DNA of 64,000 nt, taken from NCBI GenBank assembly GCA_033763315.1, contig JANRKS010000009.1:64001-128000 (forward strand). The letters are read 5' to 3'. The notes below the pieces were generated by a model. That model made no database searches. It had not been told where the DNA came from and saw only the letters and a program-made list of their open reading frames with translations. The DNA comes from Deltaproteobacteria bacterium (GTDB taxonomy: Bacteria; Myxococcota_A; Polyangia; Fen-1088). Shown here in pieces: positions 1-14,511 of this stretch. A program made the translations under genes and the position numbers. How positions within the stretch are numbered: the first letter of the stretch is position 1; every line of letters begins with the position of its first letter.

Positions 1-108
1 GTGGTCAGCGCTCCCAGCGACAAACTCGGCCCGCGCATTGGCCAGCTAAGCGACGACGTAATGACAGAAGTCAGCCGGCGGTTGGCCTTTTGGCTGGGCT
101 TTTCATGA
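1..108 (+). CDS. 3' end of PemK/MazF-family toxin (partial, window edge)
   Basis: Frame 1 reads VVSAPSDKLGPRIGQLSDDVMTEVSRRLAFWLGFS*, matching the typical MazF/PemK C-terminus (K-L-G-x-x-I-G-x-L...V-x-R-x-L-x-x-x-L-G). Confidence 0.7.
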   Translation: MVSAPSDKLGPRIGQLSDDVMTEVSRRLAFWLGFS

Positions 109-222
109 CTGTGGTTCATCGTCTTCTGAAACCGAAGCGCAGGGCGGCTTAAAGTACGCGCAGCTTTGAACGGGCTGCGGTGGATACTTGTTCGGGTGAA
201 CGGGGCACAAGATGAACGTGCT

Positions 223-242
223 GGTTTGTGTGTGCACAAACC
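223..242. terminator. Perfect 8-bp hairpin between convergent genes (possible terminator)
   Basis: GGTTTGTG-TGTG-CACAAACC; no U-tract. Confidence 0.25.
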
Positions 243-295
243 GCGGACCGACGGCACAGCGGTGACACAAGCTGGTGGCCCAGGGCAACGCGCGT

Positions 296-643
296 TCAGA
301 AGACATATGCGTCCAACATGTACGCGATTGCCAATCCGGTGGCGGTGCCCACGACGTCCCATGTGAGATCACGCCACGAAGCATCGCCGGGTCCACCCAG
401 ATCTAAGAGCTCTTTGCCCACACCCGCCGTCAACGCCAAAGCGGCGCCTGTGCCGAACCGCCAACGAAGATCGGTGGTCGTGGATGAGGCTGCGGCATAA
501 CCGGTCAATGAAAGCCCCGCCGACACGCTGCCATGCAAGTATTTATCGTGAGCGAACCATGGATCGGAATCGGCGGCTTGCACGCGTGGGGTGGCAGCGA
601 TCGGCATCAACAGCGCTGCTGCACAGGCCACGGCCGCTTTCAT
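296..643 (-). CDS. YfiM/DUF2279-like small exported membrane protein
   Basis: Signal peptide then DPWFAHDKYLH...GVGKELLD...ASWRDLTWDVVG; start ATG overlaps the upstream stop (ATGA). Confidence 0.7.
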   Translation of the reverse strand: MKAAVACAAALLMPIAATPRVQAADSDPWFAHDKYLHGSVSAGLSLTGYAAASSTTTDLRWRFGTGAALALTAGVGKELLDLGGPGDASWRDLTWDVVGTATGLAIAYMLDAYVF

Positions 644-1611
644 GCCTGCGTCTGCCCCGCGTTGATCACTTCGCGAATCACGTACGTCGCCTTGGCTTGC
701 GACTCGTGGTACGTGCGGATCTGCAGCTCTGCCAAGATGCCCAACATCACAGCCTGACCGCCCACCAGGAACAAGAACACGGCCACGCCAAACAGCGGGT
801 TCTTGTGCACCCACACGTGCTCGTGGTGAAAGAACTTTTGATAAAGCGTGAACATCGCCGCCAACGTTCCTGCGCCACACAACAGCGCGCCCAGCGTGCC
901 GAAGAAATACAGCGGCTTCGTGCCGTAGGAGCCCAGAAACTTCACCATCAGAAGGTCCAGCACAACCTTAAACGTGCGCAGCAAACCATACTTTGATTTA
1001 CCCTCAAGCCGCGGATGATGCGCCACTTCAAGTTCGGTGACGCGCGCCCCCTGCCAGTGCGCATAGATCGGAATGAACCGATGCATTTCGCCGTAAAGTC
1101 GCACGGGGGTTAGAACCTCACGGCGGTAAGCCTTCAGCGTGCAACCATAGTCATGCAGCCGCACTCCCGACACGCGCCCAATCAACCAATTGGCCAGCCA
1201 AGAGGGAAGTTTGCGGGTCCACAGTTTGTCTTTGCGAAAGCGCCGCCAACCTGAAACGACGTCAAAGCCTTCGTCAAGCTTCGCAAGGAGGCGAGGGATG
1301 TCCGCTGGGTCGTTTTGCATGTCCGCGTCCATGGGGATGATCACATCGCCGGTGGCGTGTGCGAAGCCCGCGGACATGGCCGCCGTTTGGCCGAAGTTGC
1401 GGCGCAGAATGATGATGCGCAACCAGGGGCGCGTGGCAGCTGCGGACTTTAGGGCATCGACGGAGCCATCGGAGGAGCCGTCGTCGATGATGATGATTTC
1501 GGGGTCGTGGCCTTGCGTGCGCAGCGAGGCCACGGCGTCGTCCAAGGCGGTGGCCAAACGGGGAATGGTTTGGACTTCGTTAAAGCAAGGGATGACGACG
1601 GAGAGGCGCAT
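640..1611 (-). CDS. GT2 polyprenyl-phosphate glycosyltransferase (ArnC/GtrB/DPM-synthase-like)
   Basis: VVIPCFNE, DDGSSD, RNFGQTAA, DADMQNDP, HRFIP motifs and two C-terminal TM helices. Confidence 0.92.
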   Translation of the reverse strand: MRLSVVIPCFNEVQTIPRLATALDDAVASLRTQGHDPEIIIIDDGSSDGSVDALKSAAATRPWLRIIILRRNFGQTAAMSAGFAHATGDVIIPMDADMQNDPADIPRLLAKLDEGFDVVSGWRRFRKDKLWTRKLPSWLANWLIGRVSGVRLHDYGCTLKAYRREVLTPVRLYGEMHRFIPIYAHWQGARVTELEVAHHPRLEGKSKYGLLRTFKVVLDLLMVKFLGSYGTKPLYFFGTLGALLCGAGTLAAMFTLYQKFFHHEHVWVHKNPLFGVAVFLFLVGGQAVMLGILAELQIRTYHESQAKATYVIREVINAGQTQA

Positions 1612-1719
1612 GGGGGTGCTCGTGACGCTAATCCTATGGAGGGGGAGGCGTCAAAGACCTGGACTAAATTGAAAGCGCCACAATGGCCACACTAGACTTT
1701 CTAAGTACCGCACCCTGCC

Positions 1720-1887
1720 GTCTAAGTACGAATTGTTTACTGCGTTCACCGCAGCGGTCGCCTCCTCGAGATCGCTTGTCGGTTTCGTGATCAACTAATG
1801 CATTTGCTGCGTAATGCGCAGCTCTTCATCGCTGTAACCTGACATCACCTTCGCCATCATGGGGATTGGCAGATCGCGCAAAGGCGC
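1720..1887 (-). pseudogene. Possible decayed response-regulator receiver C-terminal fragment
   Basis: Reads APLRDLPIPMMAKVMSGYSDEELRITQQMH*LITKPTSDLEE, resembling receiver beta4 to the KP motif, with an internal stop. Confidence 0.25.
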
Positions 1888-2023
1888 TCACGTTGCCGTG
1901 AGAATTAGGGATGGAACCATCTTTGGTGGCGGAGGTTTGAGGAAGTGGCAGCAGCTCATCGGCTGCGATAAACTACTGCCCGTTCGTTATTGATAGTCTG
2001 GGTGTTGATTGGTCAGACGGGTC

Positions 2024-2854
2024 TCAATTACAAGTGGTGGGATACCTGGTGAGATGATACGTCGCAGTGGAACCGGCGGTTATGAATACAGTCTTGCACG
2101 AGCTATAAGGCCCGCGCAATTCCTTGACGCCGGGTGAGATACTGTTGAAAAAACCATTGTGCTGCTGTCGGTAAACTACTGACCCCCCGACGACTTTGTA
2201 AATTAGCATCGGGTGGGGGACGATCGGGTATTCCGTGTTGTCCACAAACCTGAAGGCTTCTCCGAATTTAATCACCGGCGTGGGGCCGTCATCATAGGCA
2301 AGGAATACGGATAGATTGCCCTTACCCGATGCTGGAGTTACGTTGGGAGTTGTTGTCGAGGGATAGAAAAGCTGATAGCTGCTGAAAGTAAGTTCCGACC
2401 CTCCGTACGGCACATGGCAAGCGCCGCCGAGAAGTTTTCCGGGATGAATTCCACGAGGAAGGCCTCCGGAAACGACCGTGGCTCGGCATACGTGAAGGTT
2501 GTTGCCGTTTTCTATGCCTCCAATTAGCGAGTTATTCAGCCCATTAGGGCCCCAAGTCCCAACTCCCTCTAGGATCTGGTAGCTGGAAAAGCTGAGTTCC
2601 CCGCCGCCCCACCCGATATTGCACACGCGTGAGGCCTGTACGAGTTTTCCAGGGTGCCACACGCCATCCTTGAGCGCCCTGCAAACCCACAGTTGATTCT
2701 GCGGATTGCCATTGTTGTATTCAAAGCCGCCTAGCGTGTGCTCCCCGCGCGGCGACTTGGTGGAATCCCAGCTGTACCAGGACGCCTCAGCCGTCCTGGT
2801 GTAACTCACGGCCATAAACGCAAAAATAGCCAAACTCAGGTGTGTTCTTTTCAT
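2024..2854 (-). CDS. Secreted DM9-repeat (DUF3421) protein with unknown C-terminal domain
   Basis: Signal peptide (AEA|S); two repeats L(W/H)VCRA...HPGKL...C(N/H)(I/V)x(W/Y)GG.EL.FSSYQ; Thr/Pro linker; lower GC than the core. Confidence 0.8.
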   Translation of the reverse strand: MKRTHLSLAIFAFMAVSYTRTAEASWYSWDSTKSPRGEHTLGGFEYNNGNPQNQLWVCRALKDGVWHPGKLVQASRVCNIGWGGGELSFSSYQILEGVGTWGPNGLNNSLIGGIENGNNLHVCRATVVSGGLPRGIHPGKLLGGACHVPYGGSELTFSSYQLFYPSTTTPNVTPASGKGNLSVFLAYDDGPTPVIKFGEAFRFVDNTEYPIVPHPMLIYKVVGGSVVYRQQHNGFFNSISPGVKELRGPYSSCKTVFITAGSTATYHLTRYPTTCN

Positions 2855-3470
2855 TTGTCTGTGTCCTCAAAGTTAACATGGTTGATTGAACTACCGTCAT
2901 CGTTATTACCATGTGTGTGGCATTTTGCAATGGATCGCTAGTTCGCCGTATTAGGTTACATGCATTGCGTATTCATTCTTTTCCAAATTGGCCGCTTAAA
3001 CGCGGACCTGGCCCGGGGCTGGAAGGGCGCGAAGATGGCGAATGCAACAAGAAGGGCCGTGCGCCGTTTACCGACGATGGTTTCTCCCAGAGCTTGGCGT
3101 TGGTAATGGCCAAGGGGTCTGTGGCGATCGAGTGTGCAGAGTAGAGCGACGAAGGCGACTACAAGCCGACTGGCGCCGTCGAAATCCTGATTGCCAAGTC
3201 GCGCGCCGACTCCATGAGCGGGCTTTTGTGCGGCCTATGCGTGGCGAGTCGGATCCTCATCGCGAGGCTGCGCCGAGGATGCCCTTTAGGCGACTTCCCT
3301 GGTGTTACCGGTCGCCTTGGATGATGGTTTGCGATCCGGTTAGATGGTGGGCATCAAGGCTGCGCCAAGGGAATGGCAAACGCACGATGGCCATCGTAGC
3401 GAAGCCTGGTATTCGGCGTCGGCGGCGATTGCCATTGATCGAAACGCCACGGCAATGGCGCCTGCGGTTG

Positions 3471-3830
3471 TTACCCGACGGCGTCGCTTTCTGCCTCGAT
3501 GATGTGCGCTAGGGTGTCGCGTTCGACGAGTTTTTGCGGCGACGAGCGGCGCTTCTTAGGGCGGCGGTTGCCATCCTGGCGATTTCACGAAAGCCACCGT
3601 TGGTCGCCTCGTGCAGCATGGCAACGGCATCCGAGGTAAAGACTTCTCACTCGTAGCCGACACGGCCAAGCCGAAACGCAAGATAGGCAGCCGTGTCATC
3701 CGGGATGAGCGGATCGATTCGCAGTCTTCTGTGCAGCCGCGAACAGATCGAACGATTGCGCGGCATGCCGAGCCTGTCATGCAATTCAGGCAAGCCAACG
3801 AGGACGAGCGACAGAAGCGCGCGGCGCTTC
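3471..3830 (-). pseudogene. C-terminal half of ExeA/AAA_22-type transposition ATPase (Mu-like element)
   Basis: RALLSLVLVGLPELHDRL...RSICSRLHRRLRIDPLIPDDTAAYLAFRLGRVGYE*EVFTSDAVAMLHEATNGGFREI; one internal TGA; 5' part cut at the IS end at 3831. Confidence 0.75.
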
Positions 3831-3860
3831 TGACCTGCCCCGGTTCTCGGTACCAGTTGG

Positions 3861-4697
3861 TCAGTGAGTCCCGTCGATGCTGTATTGTCTGAATTTCTCG
3901 TTGGGGGTCAAGTAGTCTATAGCGCTGTGGGGTCGGTTCTCGTTGTAGTCCTTTCTGTACATCTCAATGATCACCGCAGCTTCGCGGCGATTGTGAAAGA
4001 CTTCCTGATTCAAACATTCTTCTCGAAGGCGGCCATTGAAGCTTTCGATGAAGCCATTCTGCCAAGGCTTCCCAGGCTGGATGTATGCAGTTTGAACGCC
4101 TGTGGCCGCTAACCACGCTTTGACTGCTTTGGCGATGAACTCTGGGCCGTTGTCGCTGCGGATGAACCGCGGTACTCCTCGTTCTGCGAAGAGCCTCGCC
4201 AAAACCGCAATGACATTCGAGGACTTCAAGGAGCCGCGGACCTCTGCAGCCAAACTTTGACGTGTGCACTCATCAGATATGGTGAGGCACTTGATCTTCT
4301 GCCCATTCATGCAGTTGTCGTGGACAAAATCGTAAGCCCATACATCGTTGGGCCTGGACGCAACGAGCTGTCGTGGGTCCTTCTTCGTCCCGCGCCGTTT
4401 CCTTCGTCTTCTCGGAACTTGCAGGCCCGCTTTTCGCCATAGTCGGTGAACTCGGTGCACGCCGAGAGTGAAGCCACCCCGACGCAGGTAATGCCGGGCC
4501 ATGCGGTACCCAAGCCGCGGATGCTTGTACGAGAAGTCGCGTAGACGCTTCAAGGGCTCTTCGTCGCGCCTGTCCATCTTGCTCTCGTAGCCAAGCCATG
4601 ATCGAGAAACGCCAACTAGCGCGCAAGCCCTTCGGCAAGAAAGGCCGCCGCTGCGCAGAAACCAAACCTGCGCGCGGCGGACTTGCGCGCTTACCAT
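3861..4697 (-). CDS. IS3 OrfB DDE transposase
   Basis: [40 protein letters not shown]. Confidence 0.95.
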
Positions 4698-4960
4698 TTT
4701 TTTCGGTTCAGCTCCTGAAGAAGATCGTTTTCAAGCACCTTCTCGGCCAACATCTTCTTCAGCCTGGCGTTCTCACCCTCAAGGTGCCGCAGACGTTTGG
4801 CATCAGGCACATCCATGCCGCCAAACTTTGCCTTCCAGCGGTAGAACGTCTGCTCGCTGATGCCGTGCTTCTTGCAGATGTCTTTCTGCGGGGCTTTACC
4901 GAGTTCGGCCTCACGCAGGATCCGAACAATTTGCTCCTCTTTGAAGACTTTCCGTTTCAT
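4691..4960 (-). CDS. IS3 OrfA (HTH plus leucine zipper)
   Basis: [14 protein letters not shown]...[18 protein letters not shown]...[14 protein letters not shown]. Confidence 0.95.
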
Positions 4961-5064
4961 TGCCCTTTGTCTGCCATTCTGCGGCAGAACTCACTTCCCC
5001 GGTGGCCCTAAATTTCGGGGGCAGGTCACCGGTGACATGCCTGGTTTCTTCGGGCCAGCAGTTA

Positions 5065-5300
5065 CTAGACAGCGCCTTGGTCGGGGCGGCCATCCACTTC
5101 CAGCGTCCTCTCGATGAGTGCGGCGGAGGCCGCAAGATGCTCGATGCGAATTTCTCGCAGAAGCGCGCACTGCTCGGCCGTGAGCTTGCGCCACCGTCCT
5201 CGCTCGCCACGCGACTTGGGCCGAAGCGCTTGCACGCCGCCCCCTTTAGGCGCATAGAGCCAGCGTTCAAGCGTCGACACTGAATACTCCGATCGAATGC
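5065..5300 (-). pseudogene. N-terminal HTH fragment of Mu-like DDE transposase (likely partner of the ExeA remnant)
   Basis: YSVSTLERWLYAPKGGGVQALRPKSRGERGRWRKLTAEQCALLREIRIEHLAASAALIERTLEVDGR, then a premature stop. Confidence 0.65.
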
Positions 5301-5458
5301 CACCGATCGAGTTGGTCTCAGTTTTGGTGAGCGACGATCGCCCCGGCGTTGTCAGGGCGGCTCTCCGCCTCCTCCTCATCCCAGGATTCGGGCTACCCTC
5401 AGCTTCTATCGACCCGCTGCGACGGGCCTATGGCCGTGTCCTTTCATCACGGCACGGT

Positions 5459-5810
5459 TCAAAGCGCCTCGTGGCGCACGATGTCCCAGGACCAAACTTG
5501 CCCAGGCCCAGTCGCCAGTAGCTCTGGCTTGGAAAACACGGTTAAACGGCGCTGTCGCCGACGCTCACAAACCTCGTGATTCGCCGCCAAGATTCGATAC
5601 ATCGTGCACAACGAACACAAATACTTGCCTTCGTCGAGCAGCCGCGCAAACACCTCCGTCGGCGCCAGCGCTTGTTTAGGCCGCCTTTTTCTTGATGGCG
5701 GTCGCGCGGCACTGTCGCGATGGCGATAGAACGTGGCGCGCCAGGCCAATGGCTGCGTATGCGCCAACGATTGTCAACGCGGGTCCATGCTCCTTGAAGA
5801 CCGCAATCAT
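5459..5810 (-). pseudogene. IS3 OrfB N-terminal remnant
   Basis: RATFYR...APTEVFARLLDEGKYLCS..TMYRIL...KPELLATGPGQVWSWDI; frameshifted, internally deleted and truncated. Confidence 0.8.
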
Positions 5811-5855
5811 GGCTTGTCGCTCCCCAGCGGTCGTCCCAAGAGAGCCGCGACTTTC

Positions 5856-7232
5856 CTAAGAAACTTCCCCCTCCGAGCTTGGAACCAGTTGGAAGCCCAG
5901 ACTACCTGCGCGCCTGCGAAGATTGTCGAGGGTCCGTTGGCGAAATCTTTCTTCGTGGTAGTCGGCACCCGGATCGACGTGGGCCGCCCCATGCTTAAGC
6001 GTGTTGTAGAAGAGCACGGCAATCTTGCGGGCCGTCGCAGTGACTGCTTTCGACTTTCCGACGCGGGCTGCAAGCCTACGGAAAAAGGCGCCCAGCGCTG
6101 TTTGCGTTTTGCCCACTGAAAGCGCGCACATCCGAAGTAGCACGCCGGCGCGGTTCGAGGAGCGTCGGGTCCGCGAACTGAGCACCTTACCGCCGGATAT
6201 CTCGCTGCCCGGGGCGAGAGTGAGCCACGACGTGAAGGGCTTGGCCGTAGGCCAGCGGGTCATATCGGTGCCGGTGCCGCACTCCCCGACGAGGCGCAGT
6301 GCTGAATACGGTCCAAGTCCATGAATTTGAGTAAGATCGACACCTCCTTTGAGGGTGTAGACTGCGGACCGCACGTCAAAATCAGGCTCGTTTCTACCTG
6401 GAGACTTCCTCCGAGGCTGGGGCATAACTTCCTTAGGCAGTGCACTCCGTTCATTCAAAGCAGCCAGGCAGCATTCGACCTCGACGTCACAGTCGCGCAT
6501 CCTCGCCTGATAGAAGTCGTAAAATTCGACAGCCTGACGAAGCTCAAACATATGCTCGGGACGGAAGTTGCCGGTGAGCGCTTCGCTGATTGTCTGCACG
6601 GATGCCTTGCAGCGCGGGTCACGGAACTGTGCCAAGGTCGCAGGCTGTCTTTCTCCATCGATGATCGCGCGAATGAGCTTCATTCCCGTTACGCCCGTTA
6701 CGTCGCTCACGACGTGGTAGAGTTGAAGATTTATCTGCATGAGTGCTTTCTGGATGTGCTGGACATGCGAGGCCGCGTACTCCACTAGGCCATCGCGAGT
6801 ACGCAGGTATGCCCTCAACGCAGTGATCTTCTCGTGTGGGCGGAAACTCCCCCGAACCAACCCGTACGCATGCAGCTGCTGGATTCACTGGGCGTCGTTC
6901 ACGTCAGTCTTCCGCCCAGGAACATTTTTGGCATCGCGTGCATTGACCAGCACTACCTCGAACCCCCGAGCTTCTAGGATCTCGTAGATGGCAACCTAGT
7001 AGATGCTTGTCGACTCGATCGCGATGGTCGTGATGCCGAGGTCCTTGAGCCAGTCGCCTAGGCGATAAAGATCTCCTGTAAAGCTTCGGAATGTGCGAAC
7101 CGGCTGCTGATCTGCATCCCGCGGCACGGCCACCACGTGGAAAGTTGCCCCGATGTCGATTCCAGCGGCATGCCTATGGACAATCGGCAGCCCAGCTTCG
7201 TCCCCTCTTTTCGTCTTACCCTTCGTCGCCAT
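5856..7232 (-). pseudogene. IS110 DEDD transposase/recombinase with two nonsense codons
   Basis: AGIDIG, IAIEST, PGRKTDVNDAQ and ISGGK motifs; in-frame stops at two expected Trp positions (IY*VA at 6996-6998 and DAQ*IQQ); RBS AGGAGG upstream. Confidence 0.9.
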
Positions 7233-7259
7233 GATTCCCTCCTGTTTAGATGAGGAGAT

Positions 7260-7420
7260 GGAAAGCGAGGCTGCGCATTGAATCACTTTCCTAAACGGGA
7301 TCGCCCCGGAGCGTCACCACTTCCAAGCACGCAGCAGCCTCGGGACCATGTTTTTTTCGGGATCGTTGTCGTCACCAAAAAGTGTGCGGCCGCTCGTTCC
7401 AACTCAGGTCAATCGTACAC
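7260..7420 (-). ncRNA. Candidate IS110 bridge RNA in the left end
   Basis: Two copies of GGTGACG-N(4/8)-CGATCCCG (7358-7376, 7296-7318); 9-bp stem 7266-7274 with 7334-7342 encloses the second copy; location matches where IS110-group elements encode bridge RNA. Boundaries are approximate. Confidence 0.65.
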
Positions 7421-7455
7421 GAGTTTCTCGAACCACAGGCAGGAGCGCCGCTCCT

Positions 7456-7804
7456 TTTGTAGCGCAACCAGCGCCTCGGCATGCTCGGCGCGCGCAGTGG
7501 CTTTATGGAGCTGCTTCTCCAGCTCAGCGATCTTGCGGTTGCGTTCATCAACGACCTTGGCTTTGCGGCCCCTCTTCTTAGGGGCCAGCAGCTCGCCACG
7601 CTCCCGGGCTCGGCGCCAATCGACCAGCTGCGAGGAGAAAAGTCCCTCGCGCCGCAACTGCGCCCCAATCTCGCCAGACGCCTTACAGGCGTCGGCTTGC
7701 CGCACTATCTCAAGCTTGTATTGCGCCGTAAATCGGCGCCGTTTTACTTTGGCCGACACCTGCACATCGCGCAGCTTTTCGGTCCCATTGAGAACATTTT
7801 CCAT
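7456..7804 (-). pseudogene. IS3 OrfA, interrupted near its 3' end by IS110
   Basis: KRRRFTAQYKLEIVRQADAC..GEIGAQLRREGLFSSQLVDWRR...LVALQK. Confidence 0.85.
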
Positions 7805-7871
7805 GAGTCATCCAATCACCGCCCTGGTGTCTAAATTCCCGGTCAGTGCCTGTCTCATCCAACCTGGCACA

Positions 7872-8212
7872 GAGGTCCATCGGCATGCGCACATTGCCGA
7901 CCACCGCTGGCGAAGATCTGCTTGCATTAGTTATGAGGCGTTACGAGCGTGCCAGCACCCTATTTACTCGAATCGTCCCGTTGAAGATTTGGGGCCGTCT
8001 GCTTGGCGACACCGCCGCGGTGGCCGCGATGCTTGACCGACTTCTGCACCATGGCCACGTCCTAAAGTGTGGTCTCAGAAGCTGGCGAACAAAACACCAC
8101 ACAAATTTGCAGCCGGAGCCTGTCTCCGCTTGCATGACGATGTCCCGGCCACTTTTCCTTTGGCCGGTTTTGAAGTGAGCATCTTTGGCCGGTTTTGAGG
8201 TGATCATCGAGG
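7872..8212 (+). mobile_element. IS21-family remnant: istB C-terminus and right end
   Basis: GEDLLALVMRRYERAST..SNRPVED.G.LLGDTAAVAAMLDRLLHHGHVLKCG.RSWR with compensating frameshifts; subterminal repeats TGGCCGGTTTTGA(A/G)GTGA at 8161 and 8186. Confidence 0.8.
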
Positions 8213-8250
8213 CGGACGCCCCTTGCTTCGTGTAACCTGGGGCCGCGTTA

Positions 8251-10593
8251 ATGAATACTAAGGTTCGCGCCGCGGCGGCCACAATACTCCTATTGCTCGG
8301 CCTGGTTTACTTTGCAGTCATCTTGAATCATCTGTATTCCGTCACGCGCTGGCTCGCGTGGCGCTATTTGATTCAGTGGTCGCTCGCCTCTTTTTGGACA
8401 TTCGGCTGCCTCTCCTTGGGACACTACTTGGTTCGCCACGTCCTTAAGCAGAAGTTCCCGGCGCGCGAACACGTTCTCTTGAGCTTGGCCACGGGTGTCC
8501 TCGCCTTTGGTTTGGTCCTGTTTAGCTGTGGTTTGTTGGGCGGTCTCAACGGCGTGTTCTTCCTCCTTTGCCCCTTCCTGCTGAGCTTGACATTCGGTCC
8601 GAGCTTCCTCGTGTACGCCAAGCGTCGCTGCATTCGTCTTGTACATTTGACCGCCGCCAATGGAAGAGCTGCGCTTTGGGGTGCAACAGCTCGCGTGTTC
8701 GGCTTGGCCGGCATCGCAATCATCGTTTTGCAGATTATGACGCCGCAGAACGTGGCCTTCGACGCTCACTGGTATCACGCGGCGATTGCAGAGTCTTACG
8801 CGGTGACAGGGCACATAAGACGTTTCAATGAGGGGTGGTTTCTCGGAACCTTGCCGCAACTTGCGACGTGGATCTACACCTGGGCTTTTCTCTGCCCCCG
8901 CGCTTCGTTGGCTTTTCGGATCGAGCTGGCCGCCCATCTCGAGCTTGTCTTGTTTCTGTTTACCTTGGCGGGTGTTGAGCCAACCGTTCGCTGGTTGCTT
9001 AAGGGAGAGGGCGCACGTGCGGCCTGGGTATCCGTCTTCTTGTTCCCGGGAATTTTCGTCTACGACTCAAACCTCAACCTATCGGCTGATCACATTCTCG
9101 GCTTCTGGACGTTGCCCGCCCTGTTGGTGGCACGACGCCTATTTCCGGTCGGCTCCGAGCAAATGGTTGGCATTCGTCGCTGCGTGCTTCTGGGTATCAT
9201 TTTGTCAGGTGCACTCCTCACCAAGTATCAGGTGCTTTATCTGGTGGTGGCTCTGACGTTCCTATTGTTTATGTCAACGTTTGATGACCTGTGGACTTCG
9301 CCGCGCGTTGCGAGGCCACGAATTGTCCTCTTGGCGTTTGCTCGGTTGTCGGTTGCGGGCGTTACCGTCGGCGTGTTGACGAGCCCGCACTGGCTAAAGA
9401 ACCTGATTTGGCATGGAAATCCCTTCTATCCATTCGCGCACAAGCTGTTCGGGGGCTTCCCCTGGACGGCTGGTACAGAGTTTCGCCTTCTGGATGCTGG
9501 CTGGACGCCCGAGGGCCCCCTTTGGGGGCGGTTAAAAGAGACGTTGGTCGCGTTGGCGTCTTTCTCTTTTAAGCCTCACGACTGGCCTGACTTTCACCGT
9601 GACCTTCCGATTTTCGGGTCCGTCTTTACCCTGATCATGATCCCTTGCTTGATCATTAAGCCACAGCGACGCCTATTTTCGCTGGCTTTGTCGACCCTTG
9701 TCGCGATTGGGACTTGGTATTGGACCTACCACCAGGATCGATACCTGCAATCGCTGTTGCCATGGATCGCCACTTTCACTGCAGCCGCTTTGGTCACCTT
9801 GTGGCGAACACAATCGCTGGCGATTCGCCTCGCACTGGTGAGCCTAATCGGCATCCAGCTAATTTGGGGATTCGAGCTTCCGGCTTTGCCAACCCACGCC
9901 ATGGCAGGCCGGTCGCCCATCATGTCAACGCTCGACCGGTTGTCTTCCGGTTACCGGGGCGACTGGGCCAATCGTGACGACCCTGCGACGAGTTTACCTC
10001 GCGTCGCGGCTCGGCTGCCAGAACGTGCCGTTGCCTTGCTGCATGAAGAGCACCTTCGATTGGGGCTTGGACACTGGATCGTGTCCGACAGCTTTGGTCG
10101 CCAAGGGGCCATTCGGTACCGCAACTGGGACACACGGAGGAGGGTCTACGACCGGCTAGCAGCACTCGGCGTCACACATATAATCCTGCGCGCAGAACCC
10201 ACCGGCGACTTTTCGTTGGCCGACAACATCGTGCTCTTTGACTTTCTGAAGGCGTTGCCTCTTGCGGCAGAGGTTGAGGGATACCGGATCTTTGAAATGA
10301 GGGACAGCCCAAGGTTGCAACCGACCGCCTACGCGGGGGCCCTGGTCGTCAAGTGCAACGGCGAGTTACGCACCGTCAGAACCGTCAAGTCTTTCGATAC
10401 GCTCGGCGGGTTTGCGAGCGATGATTGTGCCCCAGACCTTGGGCGTCTGGAATCAGCCTCTGCGCATGTTCGGTTTGTCATCGCGCCGCAAAAATTGAAT
10501 GCCCTAGGCGGTCGGCTGGGACCTAAATGGCAACAACTATTTTCGCACTCCGATGTCCTGGTATTTGCACGGGTGGCTGATAATGAATCCTAG
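8251..10593 (+). CDS. Polytopic membrane protein, probable GT-C fold glycosyltransferase
   Basis: Many TM segments; loop motif FDAHWYH; LLTKY; W.KN..WHGNPFYPF; QDRYL; soluble C-terminal domain. Confidence 0.65.
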   Translation: MNTKVRAAAATILLLLGLVYFAVILNHLYSVTRWLAWRYLIQWSLASFWTFGCLSLGHYLVRHVLKQKFPAREHVLLSLATGVLAFGLVLFSCGLLGGLNGVFFLLCPFLLSLTFGPSFLVYAKRRCIRLVHLTAANGRAALWGATARVFGLAGIAIIVLQIMTPQNVAFDAHWYHAAIAESYAVTGHIRRFNEGWFLGTLPQLATWIYTWAFLCPRASLAFRIELAAHLELVLFLFTLAGVEPTVRWLLKGEGARAAWVSVFLFPGIFVYDSNLNLSADHILGFWTLPALLVARRLFPVGSEQMVGIRRCVLLGIILSGALLTKYQVLYLVVALTFLLFMSTFDDLWTSPRVARPRIVLLAFARLSVAGVTVGVLTSPHWLKNLIWHGNPFYPFAHKLFGGFPWTAGTEFRLLDAGWTPEGPLWGRLKETLVALASFSFKPHDWPDFHRDLPIFGSVFTLIMIPCLIIKPQRRLFSLALSTLVAIGTWYWTYHQDRYLQSLLPWIATFTAAALVTLWRTQSLAIRLALVSLIGIQLIWGFELPALPTHAMAGRSPIMSTLDRLSSGYRGDWANRDDPATSLPRVAARLPERAVALLHEEHLRLGLGHWIVSDSFGRQGAIRYRNWDTRRRVYDRLAALGVTHIILRAEPTGDFSLADNIVLFDFLKALPLAAEVEGYRIFEMRDSPRLQPTAYAGALVVKCNGELRTVRTVKSFDTLGGFASDDCAPDLGRLESASAHVRFVIAPQKLNALGGRLGPKWQQLFSHSDVLVFARVADNES

Positions 10594-11788
10594 AATGTCC
10601 AACGCTTTGCAGAACAGAATTGGTCGTTTCATGACCGAGAGTACCTTCGCTCGAACACTACAGCAGCACTGGCTTGCTGGGAGCGTGTTGCTTCTCGCCG
10701 TGCTGGCGCGCGTCTTCCTACTCAAGGTCATCCCGAACACCGACGTTCCCGAAGGCTACGGCCCTTGGTACGACGAGATCGTGCAGTACGGGCGCGTGAA
10801 GGCGTGGGGACGTGACATCTCTGACTATGCTCCGCCTTATCTGTACCTGCTTTCGCTGGCCAGCCTGCTTCCTTTTCACAAGTTCGTTAACATCAAACTG
10901 GTTCCGCTGGTCTTCGATCTGTGGGCTGCTTGGTTATGTGTTCGGCTGGTCAAACGCATTCATCCCGTGGGGCCGATACCCATGCTGGCCGGTCTCTTGT
11001 TCCTGCTAGGGCCCACGGTCATGGCCAACAGTGCGCTGTGGGGACAGGTGGACGTCATATACATGACCTTCCTGCTCCTTTCTCTGATCTACGTGTTGGA
11101 CGAGCGGCCAACGCGCAGTGTGCTCGCTTTTTCGCTGGCACTTGCTTTCAAGTTGCAGGCAGCCTTCTTTTTACCAGCCCTTGTCGTGCTCTTCCTTGAG
11201 CGGGGTTGGCGTCTTTGGCGATTCGCTTTGGCGCCTGTCGGTTACCTCCTGCTTTCGGTTCCAGCGATACTAGCCGGACGTGCTATCGGCAACACTTTGA
11301 CTGTTTATCTCAGGCAGGTGGGCAGTCAAGGTTCGCTCGAACAGAACGCCGCCTCGATTTACCAGTGGCTTCCCTCACCTGATCCCCAGCTGCAAGCCCG
11401 AGCGGGCATCGTGTTTGCTGCGGCGGTGTGCGGATTCTTCATAGCGGCGATTCATTATTTGGCTAAGAACAAGTTCGACCGAAAAACTCAATTTTCCATC
11501 GCCATGTTGATGGCCGCGCTCCCTCCCTTCCTGCTGCCCAACATGCACGAGCGCTACGCGTATTGTTCAGATGTGCTGGCGACTTTGACTCCGTTCGTGG
11601 TTCCCAGCTTAACCTTGCCAGCCGGGCTCTTGATCTTTGCATCGCTGGCGTCGTATGGACCTTTTTTGCGTCACGATTGGCTGCCGCTTCCGTATGCTGC
11701 CGCCATCAATGCCGTTGCCTTGTACTTACTCGCTAAGAACATTGCGCGGACCACAGGTATGATTAGCGGTCGTACCCCTCAATCGTGA
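10583..11788 (+). CDS. GT-C glycosyltransferase (GT87/Gpi18-related mannosyltransferase-like)
   Basis: SDYAPPYLYLL, NSALWGQVD, FKLQAAF, MHERY motifs; multiple TM helices. Confidence 0.75.
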   Translation: MNPRMSNALQNRIGRFMTESTFARTLQQHWLAGSVLLLAVLARVFLLKVIPNTDVPEGYGPWYDEIVQYGRVKAWGRDISDYAPPYLYLLSLASLLPFHKFVNIKLVPLVFDLWAAWLCVRLVKRIHPVGPIPMLAGLLFLLGPTVMANSALWGQVDVIYMTFLLLSLIYVLDERPTRSVLAFSLALAFKLQAAFFLPALVVLFLERGWRLWRFALAPVGYLLLSVPAILAGRAIGNTLTVYLRQVGSQGSLEQNAASIYQWLPSPDPQLQARAGIVFAAAVCGFFIAAIHYLAKNKFDRKTQFSIAMLMAALPPFLLPNMHERYAYCSDVLATLTPFVVPSLTLPAGLLIFASLASYGPFLRHDWLPLPYAAAINAVALYLLAKNIARTTGMISGRTPQS

Positions 11789-11813
11789 ACTTGCCTGAGG
11801 CAGGGGGCCACTG

Positions 11814-13361
11814 TTGGACGGAATGACTATTGTGAACAGGCTCGGCCGCCAATGGAGGCTCATTGCGATCCTCGTTGTCGGCATCTGTGTCCGGGCCTTT
11901 TACTTGGGGCAATGTCCTCAAGGATTGAACCAGGACGAGACCTCGCTTGGGTACGACGCCTATTCCATCCTAAATTATGGAATGGATAGACACCTGACCC
12001 CGTACCCGGCGTTTCTTATTGCATGGGGCTCGGGCATGAATGTTTTGTCCGCCTACTTGGCTGTGCCATTCATCAAAGTCTTTGGACTGACGGCGCTATC
12101 GTTGCGACTTGTCAACGCGATATCTGGAATGGTATCGCTCGCCATCTTCTATACTTTTGTTAGGACCATCTCTGGAGAACGGCAAGCGCTGTGGTCGACT
12201 TTCGTCCTCGCGATCTGCCCCTGGCACATCATGATGTCGCGGTGGGGGTTGGAATCAAATGTCCTCCCGGCCTTCTTTTTGACGGCCGTGACTTGTTTTA
12301 TTAAAGCTCAAGAGAGGCCGCGCTTGTGGCCGTTGGTCGGCTCACTCTTTGGTCTCTGTTTATATGCCTATGGAACGGCGTACTTCGCTGTTCCTTTGTT
12401 TGTCACGCTTGGAACGCTCTACATGGCTCGGCGCCGGACCCTGAACTGGCGATGGTTCGTCGCAGGCGTTGCTTCGTTCATTCTCGTGTCAGCGCCGATA
12501 GTTGCCACAGTGCTCATCAATCGGCTGCGTTTGCCAAGTACGCGAATGCTCGGGATTGGCATCCCCCGGATGACAACCGTGCCGCGATACGAACAGCTTT
12601 CGTCTTTGTTTGGTCAAGACGGATTGCGACGCACTTGGCACAACATCACAGCGTTGGTGACCATGATCTTGAAGCAGGACGATGGTGCAAGTTGGAACAA
12701 CATTCCCGAATTCGGGATCGTCTATCCTATCGGTCTTGGATTTGCCGCTCTGGGCCTGCTGACGCTTGTGCAAAACACGTTGCGATACAGGCTCGCTTCG
12801 CAAGAAGTCTGGGTCGTTCTTTGGCTGCTTGTGGCGCTGCTCTTGGGAGTCGTTCAAGAGGCCAATATTAATCGCGTCAATCTCCTTTGGATGCCCGTCG
12901 TCTTCCTCGTCGCGAAAGGGCTCAACGAAGCGTCAACTGACGCATGGAGAGCTCGCGCTTTCATAGCGATGATGGGAGCGTTTTTTGTCGCGTTTTGCTT
13001 CTCCTATTTCGGCCCGTATCGATCCGCTAGCGACGGCTTCTTTCCGGGTTTTGGACGCGCGCTGAAGGTCGCGACCGCCACCGTCAACGGCGAGGTGTGC
13101 GTCACGGACCGAGTCAATATGCCTTACGTGTTCGCATTGTTCTACGACCGCACCGATCCGCGCAAATTCGCTCGAACGGTTGTCTACGAAGGTGAAGGAG
13201 AATTTCAAGGCGTGAAATCCTTTGACCGTTTCACCTTTGGGATCAGCCGCTGTCCGCCAGGGACTCAGGCCTACGTACTGGAGAGAGGCGAAGATGAACC
13301 TCTTGAAGCCACAGGGACCGAGATCTTTCGGTCGTCACGGTACGTGGTGGTCAAGAAGTAG
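11814..13361 (+). CDS. ArnT/PMT-like (GT83/GT39) GT-C glycosyltransferase
   Basis: P.GLNQDE..GYDAYSI, LRL, PWHIMMSRWGLESN motifs. Confidence 0.8.
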   Translation: MDGMTIVNRLGRQWRLIAILVVGICVRAFYLGQCPQGLNQDETSLGYDAYSILNYGMDRHLTPYPAFLIAWGSGMNVLSAYLAVPFIKVFGLTALSLRLVNAISGMVSLAIFYTFVRTISGERQALWSTFVLAICPWHIMMSRWGLESNVLPAFFLTAVTCFIKAQERPRLWPLVGSLFGLCLYAYGTAYFAVPLFVTLGTLYMARRRTLNWRWFVAGVASFILVSAPIVATVLINRLRLPSTRMLGIGIPRMTTVPRYEQLSSLFGQDGLRRTWHNITALVTMILKQDDGASWNNIPEFGIVYPIGLGFAALGLLTLVQNTLRYRLASQEVWVVLWLLVALLLGVVQEANINRVNLLWMPVVFLVAKGLNEASTDAWRARAFIAMMGAFFVAFCFSYFGPYRSASDGFFPGFGRALKVATATVNGEVCVTDRVNMPYVFALFYDRTDPRKFARTVVYEGEGEFQGVKSFDRFTFGISRCPPGTQAYVLERGEDEPLEATGTEIFRSSRYVVVKK

Positions 13362-13512
13362 TAATATGGTCGCCAAGGCAGGGCCCCTGGATGCCCTCTT
13401 CGTCTCAATGGCGATCGGCTGTGGGGCGCGTGGGGCACCGGCGATGTTGATTCCCCAGGGGCATCAACTTATGCTGCAAAAAGCATTCTTGCTGCGATAG
13501 TGAACGCAAAAC

Positions 13513-14511
13513 ATGGAATCTAAGGAATCCAAAGGTCGCCCGATCCTTTCCCTTGTCCTTCCCATCTTCAATGAAGAGGAGGTCATTCCTGAGCTTCACA
13601 AGCGACTCACGGAGTTCTTGGCGCAGCTGCCGGAGCTGCAGGGCAGTTGGGAGGTGATCTTTGTCAACGATGGCTCATCGGATAAGAGCCCCGGCATGCT
13701 CGACGAGCTGGGGCGCGCCGAACCGCGTTTTCACGTGGTGCATTTTGCGCGCAATTTCGGCCACCAGGCAGCGATCACAGCGGGGCTTGACCGTGCCGAG
13801 GGCGACGCCGTCGTTGTGATGGACGCGGACCTTCAGGATCCCCCTGAAGTGGTCAAAGCCATGATCGCCAAGTGGCGCGAAGGGTTTGATGTTGTTTATG
13901 GCGTGCGAACGAAGCGCATCGGCGAGACCATTTTCAAACGCGCCACCGCTTCGGCGTTTTACCGGCTAATGAATGCGGCGTTGGGCGTGAAAATTCCGCG
14001 TGACGCGGGCGATTTTCGTTTGATGAGCCGCCCGGTGGTCCTGACGTTGCGCAGCCTGCGGGAGAAGCACCGCTTCATGCGCGGCCTTGTGGCGTGGGTG
14101 GGCTTTCGCCAAACCAACGTCAATTACGAACGCCCCGAACGCTTTGCCGGCGAGACGAAGTACCCGTTGCGCAAGATGGTTAAGTTTGCCCTGGATGGCA
14201 TCACGTCGTTTTCCACAAGCCCCCTGCGCATCGCCACGTGGCTCGGCGCCTTTACTGGTCTGATCGCCGTGGGCATCGGGGTGTGGGCTGTTTACATCAA
14301 GCTGTTCACCAACCACACCGTCCAGGGCTGGACCACGATCATGCTGCTGGTGGCGCTCAGCTCATCGGGCCAAATGTTGATGTTGGGGCTCTTGGGCGAA
14401 TACGTCGGGCGCATTTACGAAGAAATCAAACAGCGCCCCCTGTATGTTGTTGCCAAAGAGTCCTCCGGTGACCAACAGCCCCAGCCCTCCCGATCCCACG
14501 AACCCTCCTGA
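13513..14511 (+). CDS. GT2 polyprenyl-phosphate glycosyltransferase (GtrB/YkcC-like)
   Basis: LPIFNEE, NDGSSD, RNFGHQAA, DADLQDPP, GDFRLMSR, GEYVGRIYEEIKQRP. Confidence 0.93.
   Translation: MESKESKGRPILSLVLPIFNEEEVIPELHKRLTEFLAQLPELQGSWEVIFVNDGSSDKSPGMLDELGRAEPRFHVVHFARNFGHQAAITAGLDRAEGDAVVVMDADLQDPPEVVKAMIAKWREGFDVVYGVRTKRIGETIFKRATASAFYRLMNAALGVKIPRDAGDFRLMSRPVVLTLRSLREKHRFMRGLVAWVGFRQTNVNYERPERFAGETKYPLRKMVKFALDGITSFSTSPLRIATWLGAFTGLIAVGIGVWAVYIKLFTNHTVQGWTTIMLLVALSSSGQMLMLGLLGEYVGRIYEEIKQRPLYVVAKESSGDQQPQPSRSHEPS

Follow-up and report, generated by a model that had tools for sequence, protein, structure and literature searches.

That recombinases of the IS110 family of insertion sequences (IS) are guided by bridge or seek RNAs is established (PMC11208160, PMC11208158, PMC11187229), and targets of such elements inside other mobile elements are already known. 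ISEc21 targets the DDE codons of IS3-family elements (Siddiquee, Pong, Hall and Ataide 2024, PMC11187229), and IS1383 and IS4321/IS5075, cited in PMC11208160, target the inverted repeats of IS1384 and of the Tn21 family, respectively. In this work we describe an IS110-group element found in a stretch of 64,000 nucleotides (nt) of a Deltaproteobacteria bacterium (assembly GCA_033763315.1, contig JANRKS010000009.1, positions 64,001 to 128,000), hereafter called the window, to which the coordinates given below refer. The element lies inside an IS3-family element, between its orfA and its orfB. We consider it very probable that it is a dead copy belonging to a large, multi-phylum clade that is directed by RNA into the slippery A-run (CAA AAA AAA G) of the IS3 orfA/orfB overlap.

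The clade resembles ISEc21 (PMC11187229) in being of IS110 type with a guide RNA from the upstream non-coding region, in having as its natural target a conserved and functionally constrained stretch within IS3-family elements, in inserting in one orientation without target duplication, and in natural retargeting, which is reported there for the ISEc21 relative ISMch6. Unlike ISEc21, as described in the same text, the clade hits the orfA/orfB slippery A-run, that is, a recoding signal and not the catalytic codons; its junctions lie about 120 codons before the rve start, and not at codons around the DDE triad's second D. A homopolymer target and a very wide distribution further set the clade apart from ISEc21 as it is described there, the comparison being one of descriptions. 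In the clade target loop, the 3' side holds the strand identical to the left target, and the 5' side the one complementary to the right target; this order is apparently the reverse of that of ISEc21, for which the top-strand-complementary segment is placed 3' of the bottom-strand one (PMC11187229).

With IS621 and IS622 (Durrant 2024, PMC11208160; Hiraizumi 2024, PMC11208158), the clade shares the DEDD_Tnp_IS110 and Transposase_20 domains, a long left end with nearly no right end, a two-loop RNA (target loop and donor loop), a 2-nt core common to target and donor, and extra donor-loop bases matching the right target flank in a handshake-like manner. In those descriptions, the natural targets of IS621 are repetitive extragenic palindromic (REP) sequences with a CT core, whereas those of the clade are an A-run in another IS, with a probable AA core, and the clade transposase, of about 457 amino acids, is longer than that of IS621. 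IS1383 and IS4321/IS5075, as they are presented there, are IS110/IS1111-family elements which, like the clade, have a specific target in another mobile element; unlike those of the clade, their targets are terminal inverted repeats and not a coding or recoding signal. In the full-text literature we found no report of an IS110-family element targeting the IS3 frameshift site; ISfinder, TnPedia and the supplements (the target tables of Durrant 2024 and Supplementary Figures 11-12 of Siddiquee 2024) lay outside this search and may bear on the point, and the E. coli and Citrobacter members may have an ISfinder name and target. The guide order in the loops is apparently also the reverse of that of IS621. 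IS4321 and IS5075 belong to the IS1111 group, with the RNA in the right end.

Insertion site in the window and among relatives

In the window, IS3 orfA runs on the minus strand to ...LVALQK, is followed by about 1.6 kb of IS110 sequence and resumes as KVAALLG...* ahead of orfB, just as a first-pass annotation of this DNA had read it, and Pfam recognizes HTH_Tnp_1 in orfA and the IS110 domains in the insert. The left junction reads ...GCG CTA CAA AAG and then GAG CGG... (7463-7449, minus strand), and the right one ...TTT CTT AGG and then AAA GTC GCG GCT... (5863-5845, minus strand); after the insert, orfA continues as ...A GTC GCG GCT CTC TTG GGA... from 5852, and the slippery run is reduced to 4 A at 7458-7455. 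An uninterrupted relative of this IS3 on contig C23 of the same genome (74% DNA identity over 7455-7875) reads ...LVELQKKVAALLGRPLGSEKP* over CTA CAA AAA AAA GTG, that is, a run of 8 A; its orfA carries HTH_Tnp_1 and its orfB rve (Pfam), and its orfB lies in the -1 frame by arithmetic from the coordinates. On both sides of the insert the IS3 homology breaks off and starts again at the same C23 position to within 1-2 nt (in the junction alignment, window 7455 corresponds to L003 1489 and window 5854 to L003 1487), which upholds the earlier claim that the IS110 sits exactly in the slippery A-run.

The orfB remnant has an ATG overlapping the orfA stop, is frameshifted and internally deleted, and is broken off after ...VWSWDI near 5470. 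It shares DNA homology with C23 orfB across 5481-5668 and 5721-5854; a Pfam scan of the remnant gave no match, whereas C23 orfB has rve. As judged from these features (HTH_Tnp_1 in orfA, an orfB homologous to the rve-bearing one of C23, and an A-run in the overlap), the interrupted host fits the IS3 family, its frameshifting being a predicted one.

Relatives were collected in two sets: 79 loci from genomes (one genome per species, 57-73% protein identity, many phyla) and 80 loci from metagenomes, fetched independently and treated with the same script. The borders of the window copy were set from the homologous loci of both sets and from the break in IS3 homology. With the motif T[TC][TAC]C[TA][TC](G)AG, the right end was located at 73 of the 79 genome loci and 77 of the 80 metagenome loci; it is mostly TTTCTTAG, with a few TTTCTCAG, TTTCATAG and TTCCTTAG and one TCTCGAG variant. 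Of the 79 genome loci, 69 had a readable left junction, and an A-run of at least 5 precedes the element at 52 of them (6 A at 40 loci, 7 A at 11 and 5 A at one; the rest have 4 A, one locus, 3 A, 13, 2 A, two, and 0 A, one); a single genome contributes nine of the 13 copies with 3 A. In the metagenome set, with 58 of 80 left junctions readable, a run of at least 5 A was found at 49 (6 A at 28 loci, 7 A at 12 and 5 A at nine). Instead of being scattered over unrelated, non-A-rich targets, most relatives of both sets occupy this same A-run, where IS3 orfA and orfB meet; the first-pass annotation had suggested that this IS110 lineage may be programmed to hit the frameshift motif of another IS, and these counts, together with the guide RNA that carries the A-run and the variant guides that fit variant flanks, bear the suggestion out at the level of the clade.

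The usual flank translations are ...EREILK(K) followed by (K)AAAFFAKE..*, or ...VQK(K) followed by (K)VAALLG... In the genome set, Pfam assigned HTH_Tnp_1 to 35 of 53 distinct upstream open reading frames (ORFs) of at least 30 amino acids (two among the 10 from non-A-run loci and 33 of the other 43) and rve to 27 of 61 distinct downstream ORFs; many contigs stop inside the flanking IS, which limits both counts. According to ad hoc patterns for orfA-end peptides, IS3-like sequence lies on at least one side of 51 of the 74 genome loci and 60 of the 77 metagenome loci that were judged. The orientation relative to IS3 orfA/orfB is the same at all loci.

The clade is also carried by plasmids (420 records, 275 with near-full copies), the Citrobacter and Bradyrhizobium examples having the same left junction, and in E. 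coli 546 of 5426 genomes gave a match, 74 of them with a near-full copy. The E. coli flanks are annotated by the NCBI Prokaryotic Genome Annotation Pipeline as 'transposase, missing C-terminus' and 'IS3 family transposase, missing N-terminus'. At two chromosomal E. coli loci (L181 and L182) the host IS3-family flanks read ...MENEILKK and ATALLMSDS, from an element that is presumably IS2-like; the IS110 gene of L181 is split. A protein search gave at least 7887 clusters at E <= 1e-50. Among its 120 best homologous proteins, the majority lie on contigs of 1.5-5 kb, and such short contigs fit assembly breaks at a multicopy repeat.

Left-end RNA, empty sites and retargeting

An alignment of 53 distinct left ends, that of the window included, gave a consensus fold with two internal loops of the same build. 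In its 21 pairs, 96.4% of the cells are paired; column shuffles gave 87.2%, and slid partners 32-50%. Both-side (compensatory) changes occur in 12 of the 21 pairs, and the covariation score was reached by none of 500 shuffles. The RNA is placed on the transposase strand on account of invariant G-U pairs. Covariation supports the prediction that the left end encodes a two-loop RNA.

The two strands of the first loop (columns 110-118 for the 5' strand and 141-149 for the 3' strand of left-end alignment A4) correspond to the two sides of the target. The 3' strand, (T/G/C)AAAAAAAC, shows 7.85 matches out of 9 with the left junction (20 distinct pairs; shuffle mean 5.97, maximum 7.1; none of 10000 shuffles reached the observed value). 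The 5' strand is complementary to AAAG(C/T), which comprises the last part of the run and the codon after it, and matches the right flank at 146 of 276 positions (shuffled 114.7, maximum 137; 0/10000). The 3' strand of the second loop, TTTAGGAA(A/G/T)G, tracks the right end of the element itself, with 7.93 matches out of 10 (shuffled 7.2; 0/10000): TTCAGG guides go with CTCAGG ends at the five loci where both could be read (L047, L049, L067, L081 and L082), and ATAGG with CATAGG at one. Towards its end, this strand tends to agree with the beginning of the right target flank, in a manner that recalls the handshake guides described in PMC11208158.

The insertion point was also fixed by alignment to uninterrupted IS3 copies in two genomes, as the first-pass annotation had proposed to do. 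The empty-site comparison and INDEPENDENCE cover the genomes of L029 and L057, with three empty sites (L086, L184 and L185). In the genome of L029, a 100% identical IS3 without insert (L086) reads GAG ATC CAA AAA AAA GCC, with 8 A, and the occupied copy shows 7 A to the left of the element and 3 A to its right. In that of L057, two empty IS3 copies (L184 and L185, 97% and 96% identical) read CAGGGAAAAGTT and CAGGGAAAAATT, and the occupied one has 3 + 3 A. In both genomes the net gain per insertion is two A with no other duplication, as a shared 2-nt core would give, so that an AA core common to target and element, in the style of the IS110 group, appears probable. At the window insertion, where the left junction is damaged, the absence of duplication can be read at the right side only.

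The same IS110 occurs in two unrelated IS3 subfamilies of one genome (L029/L030 and L031), and the flanking IS3 proteins are 28-57% identical to those of the C23 copy; on both grounds the insertions are to be regarded as independent events. Tandem head-to-tail IS110 copies are present at L029/L030 (4319-4345), L036 (4330-4350 and 5943) and L038 (4343-4365); their right-end/left-end junctions bear at most indirectly on a circular intermediate. In one Vicinamibacterales genome the flanks of two loci are swapped, with L040 having IS3 orfA to its left and, to its right, a DDE_Tnp_1_4-type gene, and L042 the reverse, which looks like recombination between two IS110 copies.

Some members carry different guide words, lie at sites that fit them and appear to have been retargeted. 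At L057, the IS3 (with HTH_Tnp_1 and rve in the flanks) has the slippery heptamer G GGA AAA and reads V Q G K V A, and the guide of its IS110 reads CAGGGAAAC, which fits the GGGAAAA heptamer; judging from this pair, at least one guide has tracked a change of the IS3 heptamer. At L081 (an IS3-like ...EILS(K) site, variant CTCTCAAA) and at L040/L042 (IS3-specific variant TTGGCAAA) the guide likewise follows the site. Other members lie in a DDE_Tnp_1_4 transposase gene (L038, L041 and L043), in a Y2_Tnp gene (L023) and in a gene with a Mu-transposase C-terminal domain (L025); off the A-run too, the clade tends towards other transposase genes.

Proposed mechanism and competing explanations

On the basis of these data, we suggest that a recombinase of the DEDD/serine type would be guided by a bridge RNA from the left end, with the 5' strand of the target loop pairing with AAAG(C/T) and the second loop matching the element's own right end TTAGG-AA. 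A circular form with the junction TTAGG-AA-CC... would recombine with the IS3 site at a core that is most likely AA. This would result in one fixed orientation, with orfA separated from orfB and the heptamer broken; from this split, the occupied IS3 copy would be left without the OrfAB transposase. The insertion might in this way disable the IS3, and the site might act as a 'safe harbour', as the first-pass annotation had put it. Decay of both partners in the window would have come later, through nonsense codons and the loss of about 9 nt at the left junction for the IS110, and through frameshift and truncation of orfB for the IS3.

Several points weigh against this interpretation. For RNA expression, circle formation and insertion, it relies on the analogy to IS621 and ISEc21. 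The left junctions were found by a search with the guide word, which makes their agreement with the guides partly circular; since they had been located in this way, a control with non-A-run guides was added, in which each of the eight fits its own upstream window with 0-2 mismatches, none of the windows from 55-64 other loci giving a better fit (six strictly best; L025 and L038 each tie with four other windows), and the IS3 reading frames and the three empty sites are further checks independent of the search. A right-donor guide, corresponding to the start of the left end, was not found when the 5' strand of the donor loop was checked, where the loop words differ between loci whose left ends begin alike. 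The right-end/left-end junctions of tandem copies read TTAGG-AAA-CC or TTAGG-AAA-CG in two genomes, where 2 A are expected, and TTAGG-AA-CC in one. Moreover, four genome loci (L028, L069 and L079 among them) and two metagenome loci are one A short of the frame prediction, the right junction having 2 A where the IS3 orfA frame needs 3. One fixed core register is contradicted by the 3-A tandem junctions and by the one-A-short loci, so that the exact core and its register within the homopolymer can be given only tentatively. At the one-A-short loci, precise excision would leave an A-run one base short, fusing orfA and orfB in frame.

The same interpretation has to face the A-run insertions outside IS3 (e.g. 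L027, L035, L050, L059, L107, L124, L135 and L143), and the fact that the genome of the window, with 60.6% G+C, contains 291 A-runs of at least 7 (224 + 55 + 11 + 1) and 50 sites of the form A7-8 + G(C/T), only two of which are IS3-like. The idea that A7 runs are rare in a GC-rich genome, and that IS3 is the only landing place, was rejected on these counts. The motif alone is insufficient to explain the IS3 bias; either recognition extends further, or selection or co-spread enriches the IS3-borne copies.

These same observations feed the alternative that survives best, although we regard it as rather unlikely, namely that targeting concerns the motif only and that the rest is survivorship. According to it, the RNA would recognize only about 10 nt, Y-A7-G-(C/T), wherever they occur, and the enrichment of IS3 would be due to the fact that insertions into IS3 are neutral and persist or spread with it, while those into host genes are lost. 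Besides the non-IS3 A-run insertions, it can draw on the motif being about 25 times commoner outside IS3 than inside in the window genome, and on guide-flank matches that demonstrably span only about 9 and 5 nt. It fits less well with guides that follow IS3-specific site variants (L057, L081, L040/L042) instead of generic A-runs, and with the IS3-like flanks at most judged loci of both sets, as scored with the ad hoc patterns. This alternative qualifies the RNA-guided targeting of the frameshift A-run but does not replace it.

It appears highly improbable, instead, that a single ancient IS3::IS110 composite has been spreading as a unit, mobilized by the IS3 transposase of sister copies. The IS3 ends are intact around the insert, so that mobilization in trans is conceivable, and many loci are short contigs ending in IS3; against this stand IS3s of 100% and 96-97% identity that occur both occupied and empty in the same genomes, the same IS110 in two unrelated IS3 subfamilies of one genome, the great diversity of the flanking IS3s and the retargeted members in other transposase genes. 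Finally, a chance landing with a meaningless A-run position, for which the IS-rich surroundings and the single copy of the IS110 in its genome might speak, is refuted by the same base-level position recurring in most of the 159 loci of two collections.

Structure and decay of the window copy, its neighbourhood and meaning

The window copy itself is decayed (Table 1). The read-through product, with X at two internal stops, matched DEDD_Tnp_IS110 (PF01548, E = 5.7e-19) and Transposase_20 (PF02371, E = 8e-9) in Pfam, and is 69-78% identical to six full-length homologues, relative to which it has a 2-codon insertion. The in-frame stops are a TAG at 6998-6996 (codon 79) and a TGA at 6887-6885 (codon 116), at both of which all six aligned homologues have Trp; because of these two nonsense codons at invariant Trp positions, the sequence identifies the copy as a dead relic that is no longer mobile. 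As far as its features can be read, it is nonetheless of the IS110 group, with the recombinase domains, a long left and a very short right end, and a predicted two-loop left-end RNA whose three guide words are all intact (7386-7378, 7358-7350 and 7295-7286). The natural stop, TAG at 5858-5856, falls within the right end, and the element finishes 3 nt past the stop codon.

At the left junction, relatives show 6-7 A before a left end that begins CC(N)TC; the window copy has 4 A and then GGAGCGG..., a stretch that corresponds in the alignment to the interior of the left end. Across the junction about 9 nt are gone (about 6 nt of the left end plus 3 A). The first-pass annotation had regarded an AGGA at both junctions as a repeat. 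This did not hold: on the right, AGGA is made of the conserved end TTAGG plus AA, and on the left it is interior left-end sequence, so that the likeness is a coincidence, produced by the deletion of about 9 nt that exposed this interior sequence. AGGA was also rejected as a core or target duplication, given that relatives have A6-7 before CC... on the left and TTAGG before AA... on the right.

The copy is single in its own genome (genome search). When its DNA was compared with 88 other genomes of the same family, matches were found in seven, weak and partial, the best being 67% over 440 nt, so that none of these genomes holds a close relative. A promoter scan of 5700-7900 found no sigma-70-like site, and an Rfam search of window positions 1-14000, with E up to 1, found no bridge-RNA family, its three weak matches all lying outside the element. 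It may be added that the TAG stop of the IS110 transposase, within the guide-matched right-end word, is in frame with the downstream IS3 orfB (TAG GAA AGC ...). This agreement of frames is found at window 5851-5863 and at all junctions of TTTCTTAG with GAAAGC, and may be a one-in-three coincidence of conserved sequences.

Table 1. Coordinates of the IS110 copy, its IS3-family host and neighbouring features in the window.
Feature	Position	Strand	Remarks
IS110-family (IS110 group) insertion sequence	5853..7454	-	1.6 kb, decayed
Left non-coding end with putative bridge-RNA gene	7233..7454	-	222 nt; RNA core about 7400-7262; from left-end alignments, consensus fold and pair counts
Target loop, 5' strand CACACTTTT	7378..7386	-	complement of AAAAGTGTG; fits AAAAGT of the IS3 site
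Target loop, 3' strand GAAAAAAAC	7350..7358	-	same sense as left target A-run plus first base of the element
Donor loop, 3' strand TTTAGGAAAG	7286..7295	-	same sense as right end TTAGG, AA and first right-flank bases
Transposase pseudogene	5856..7232	-	DEDD/RuvC-like and Tnp domains, 458 codons
Right end TTTCTTAGG	5863-5855	-	plus probable AA core 5854-5853; feature span 5853..5863
IS3-family element, left part	7455..7873	-	terminal repeat region and orfA
IS3 terminal repeat region	about 7873-7850	-	end repeat spotted by eye
IS3 orfA, 5' part	7804-7455	-	HTH_Tnp_1 (Pfam, 7804-7463); ends ...LVALQK
IS3 orfA, remainder	5807..5852	-	reads (K)VAALLGRPLGSDKP*; matches C23 copy
IS3 orfB remnant	5470..5810	-	DNA homology to C23 orfB
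Second IS3-family element, intact-looking	3861-4960	-	orfA 4960-4691 (HTH_Tnp_1), orfB 4697-3861 (rve)
HTH_32-like transposase N-terminal fragment	5068-5379 (region to 5460)	-	E = 1e-5, under the Pfam cut-off
IstB C-terminal fragment, IS21-type	7846-8175	+	PF01695, E = 2.6e-15, profile 162-236 of 238

The surrounding region is an IS graveyard, with a fragment of IS21 IstB, two IS3 elements and another transposase fragment. The IstB fragment is apparently truncated by the interrupted IS3's left end, and the HTH_32-like fragment comes after the point at which its orfB breaks off (about 5470). The second IS3 has a slippery run, G-A7-TGG near 4700, which fits the left guide word of the IS110 and not the right one, and is unoccupied; a site similar to this run is present on C23 near 2511.

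A more far-reaching idea is that the clade is a specialized hyperparasite of IS3, engaged in an arms race over the frameshift signal. Under this idea, which we put forward only tentatively and consider doubtful, IS3 heptamers would escape (from A AAA AAA to G GGA AAA, GGCAAAAG or CTCTCAAAAG), as far as slippage of the ribosome permits, and the guide loop would follow; the OrfAB knockout would be a natural brake on IS3 expansion from which the host benefits, and slips of the core register by plus or minus one A, at insertion or excision, would toggle IS3 between frameshift-dependent and fused-frame states.

The RNA-guided IS110 recombinases are under development as genome-writing tools, and their natural target choice is little described. 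The clade considered here ranges over Acidobacteriota, Myxococcota, Pseudomonas, plasmids of Enterobacteriaceae and E. coli, and is very probably aimed at the programmed-frameshift signal of IS3. Since the host element cannot easily mutate it, such a recoding signal would be a stable, multicopy landing pad, and a natural homopolymer target with an AA core might offer a test of how register is kept in bridge recombination. The targeting would also account for the annotation pattern 'transposase, partial' - IS110 - 'IS3 transposase, partial', and for the frequency of IS110 genes on very short contigs. The copy in the window is an ordinary dead relic, yet it points to a target preference at the level of the clade, and the system may allow one to ask whether one IS family limits another.

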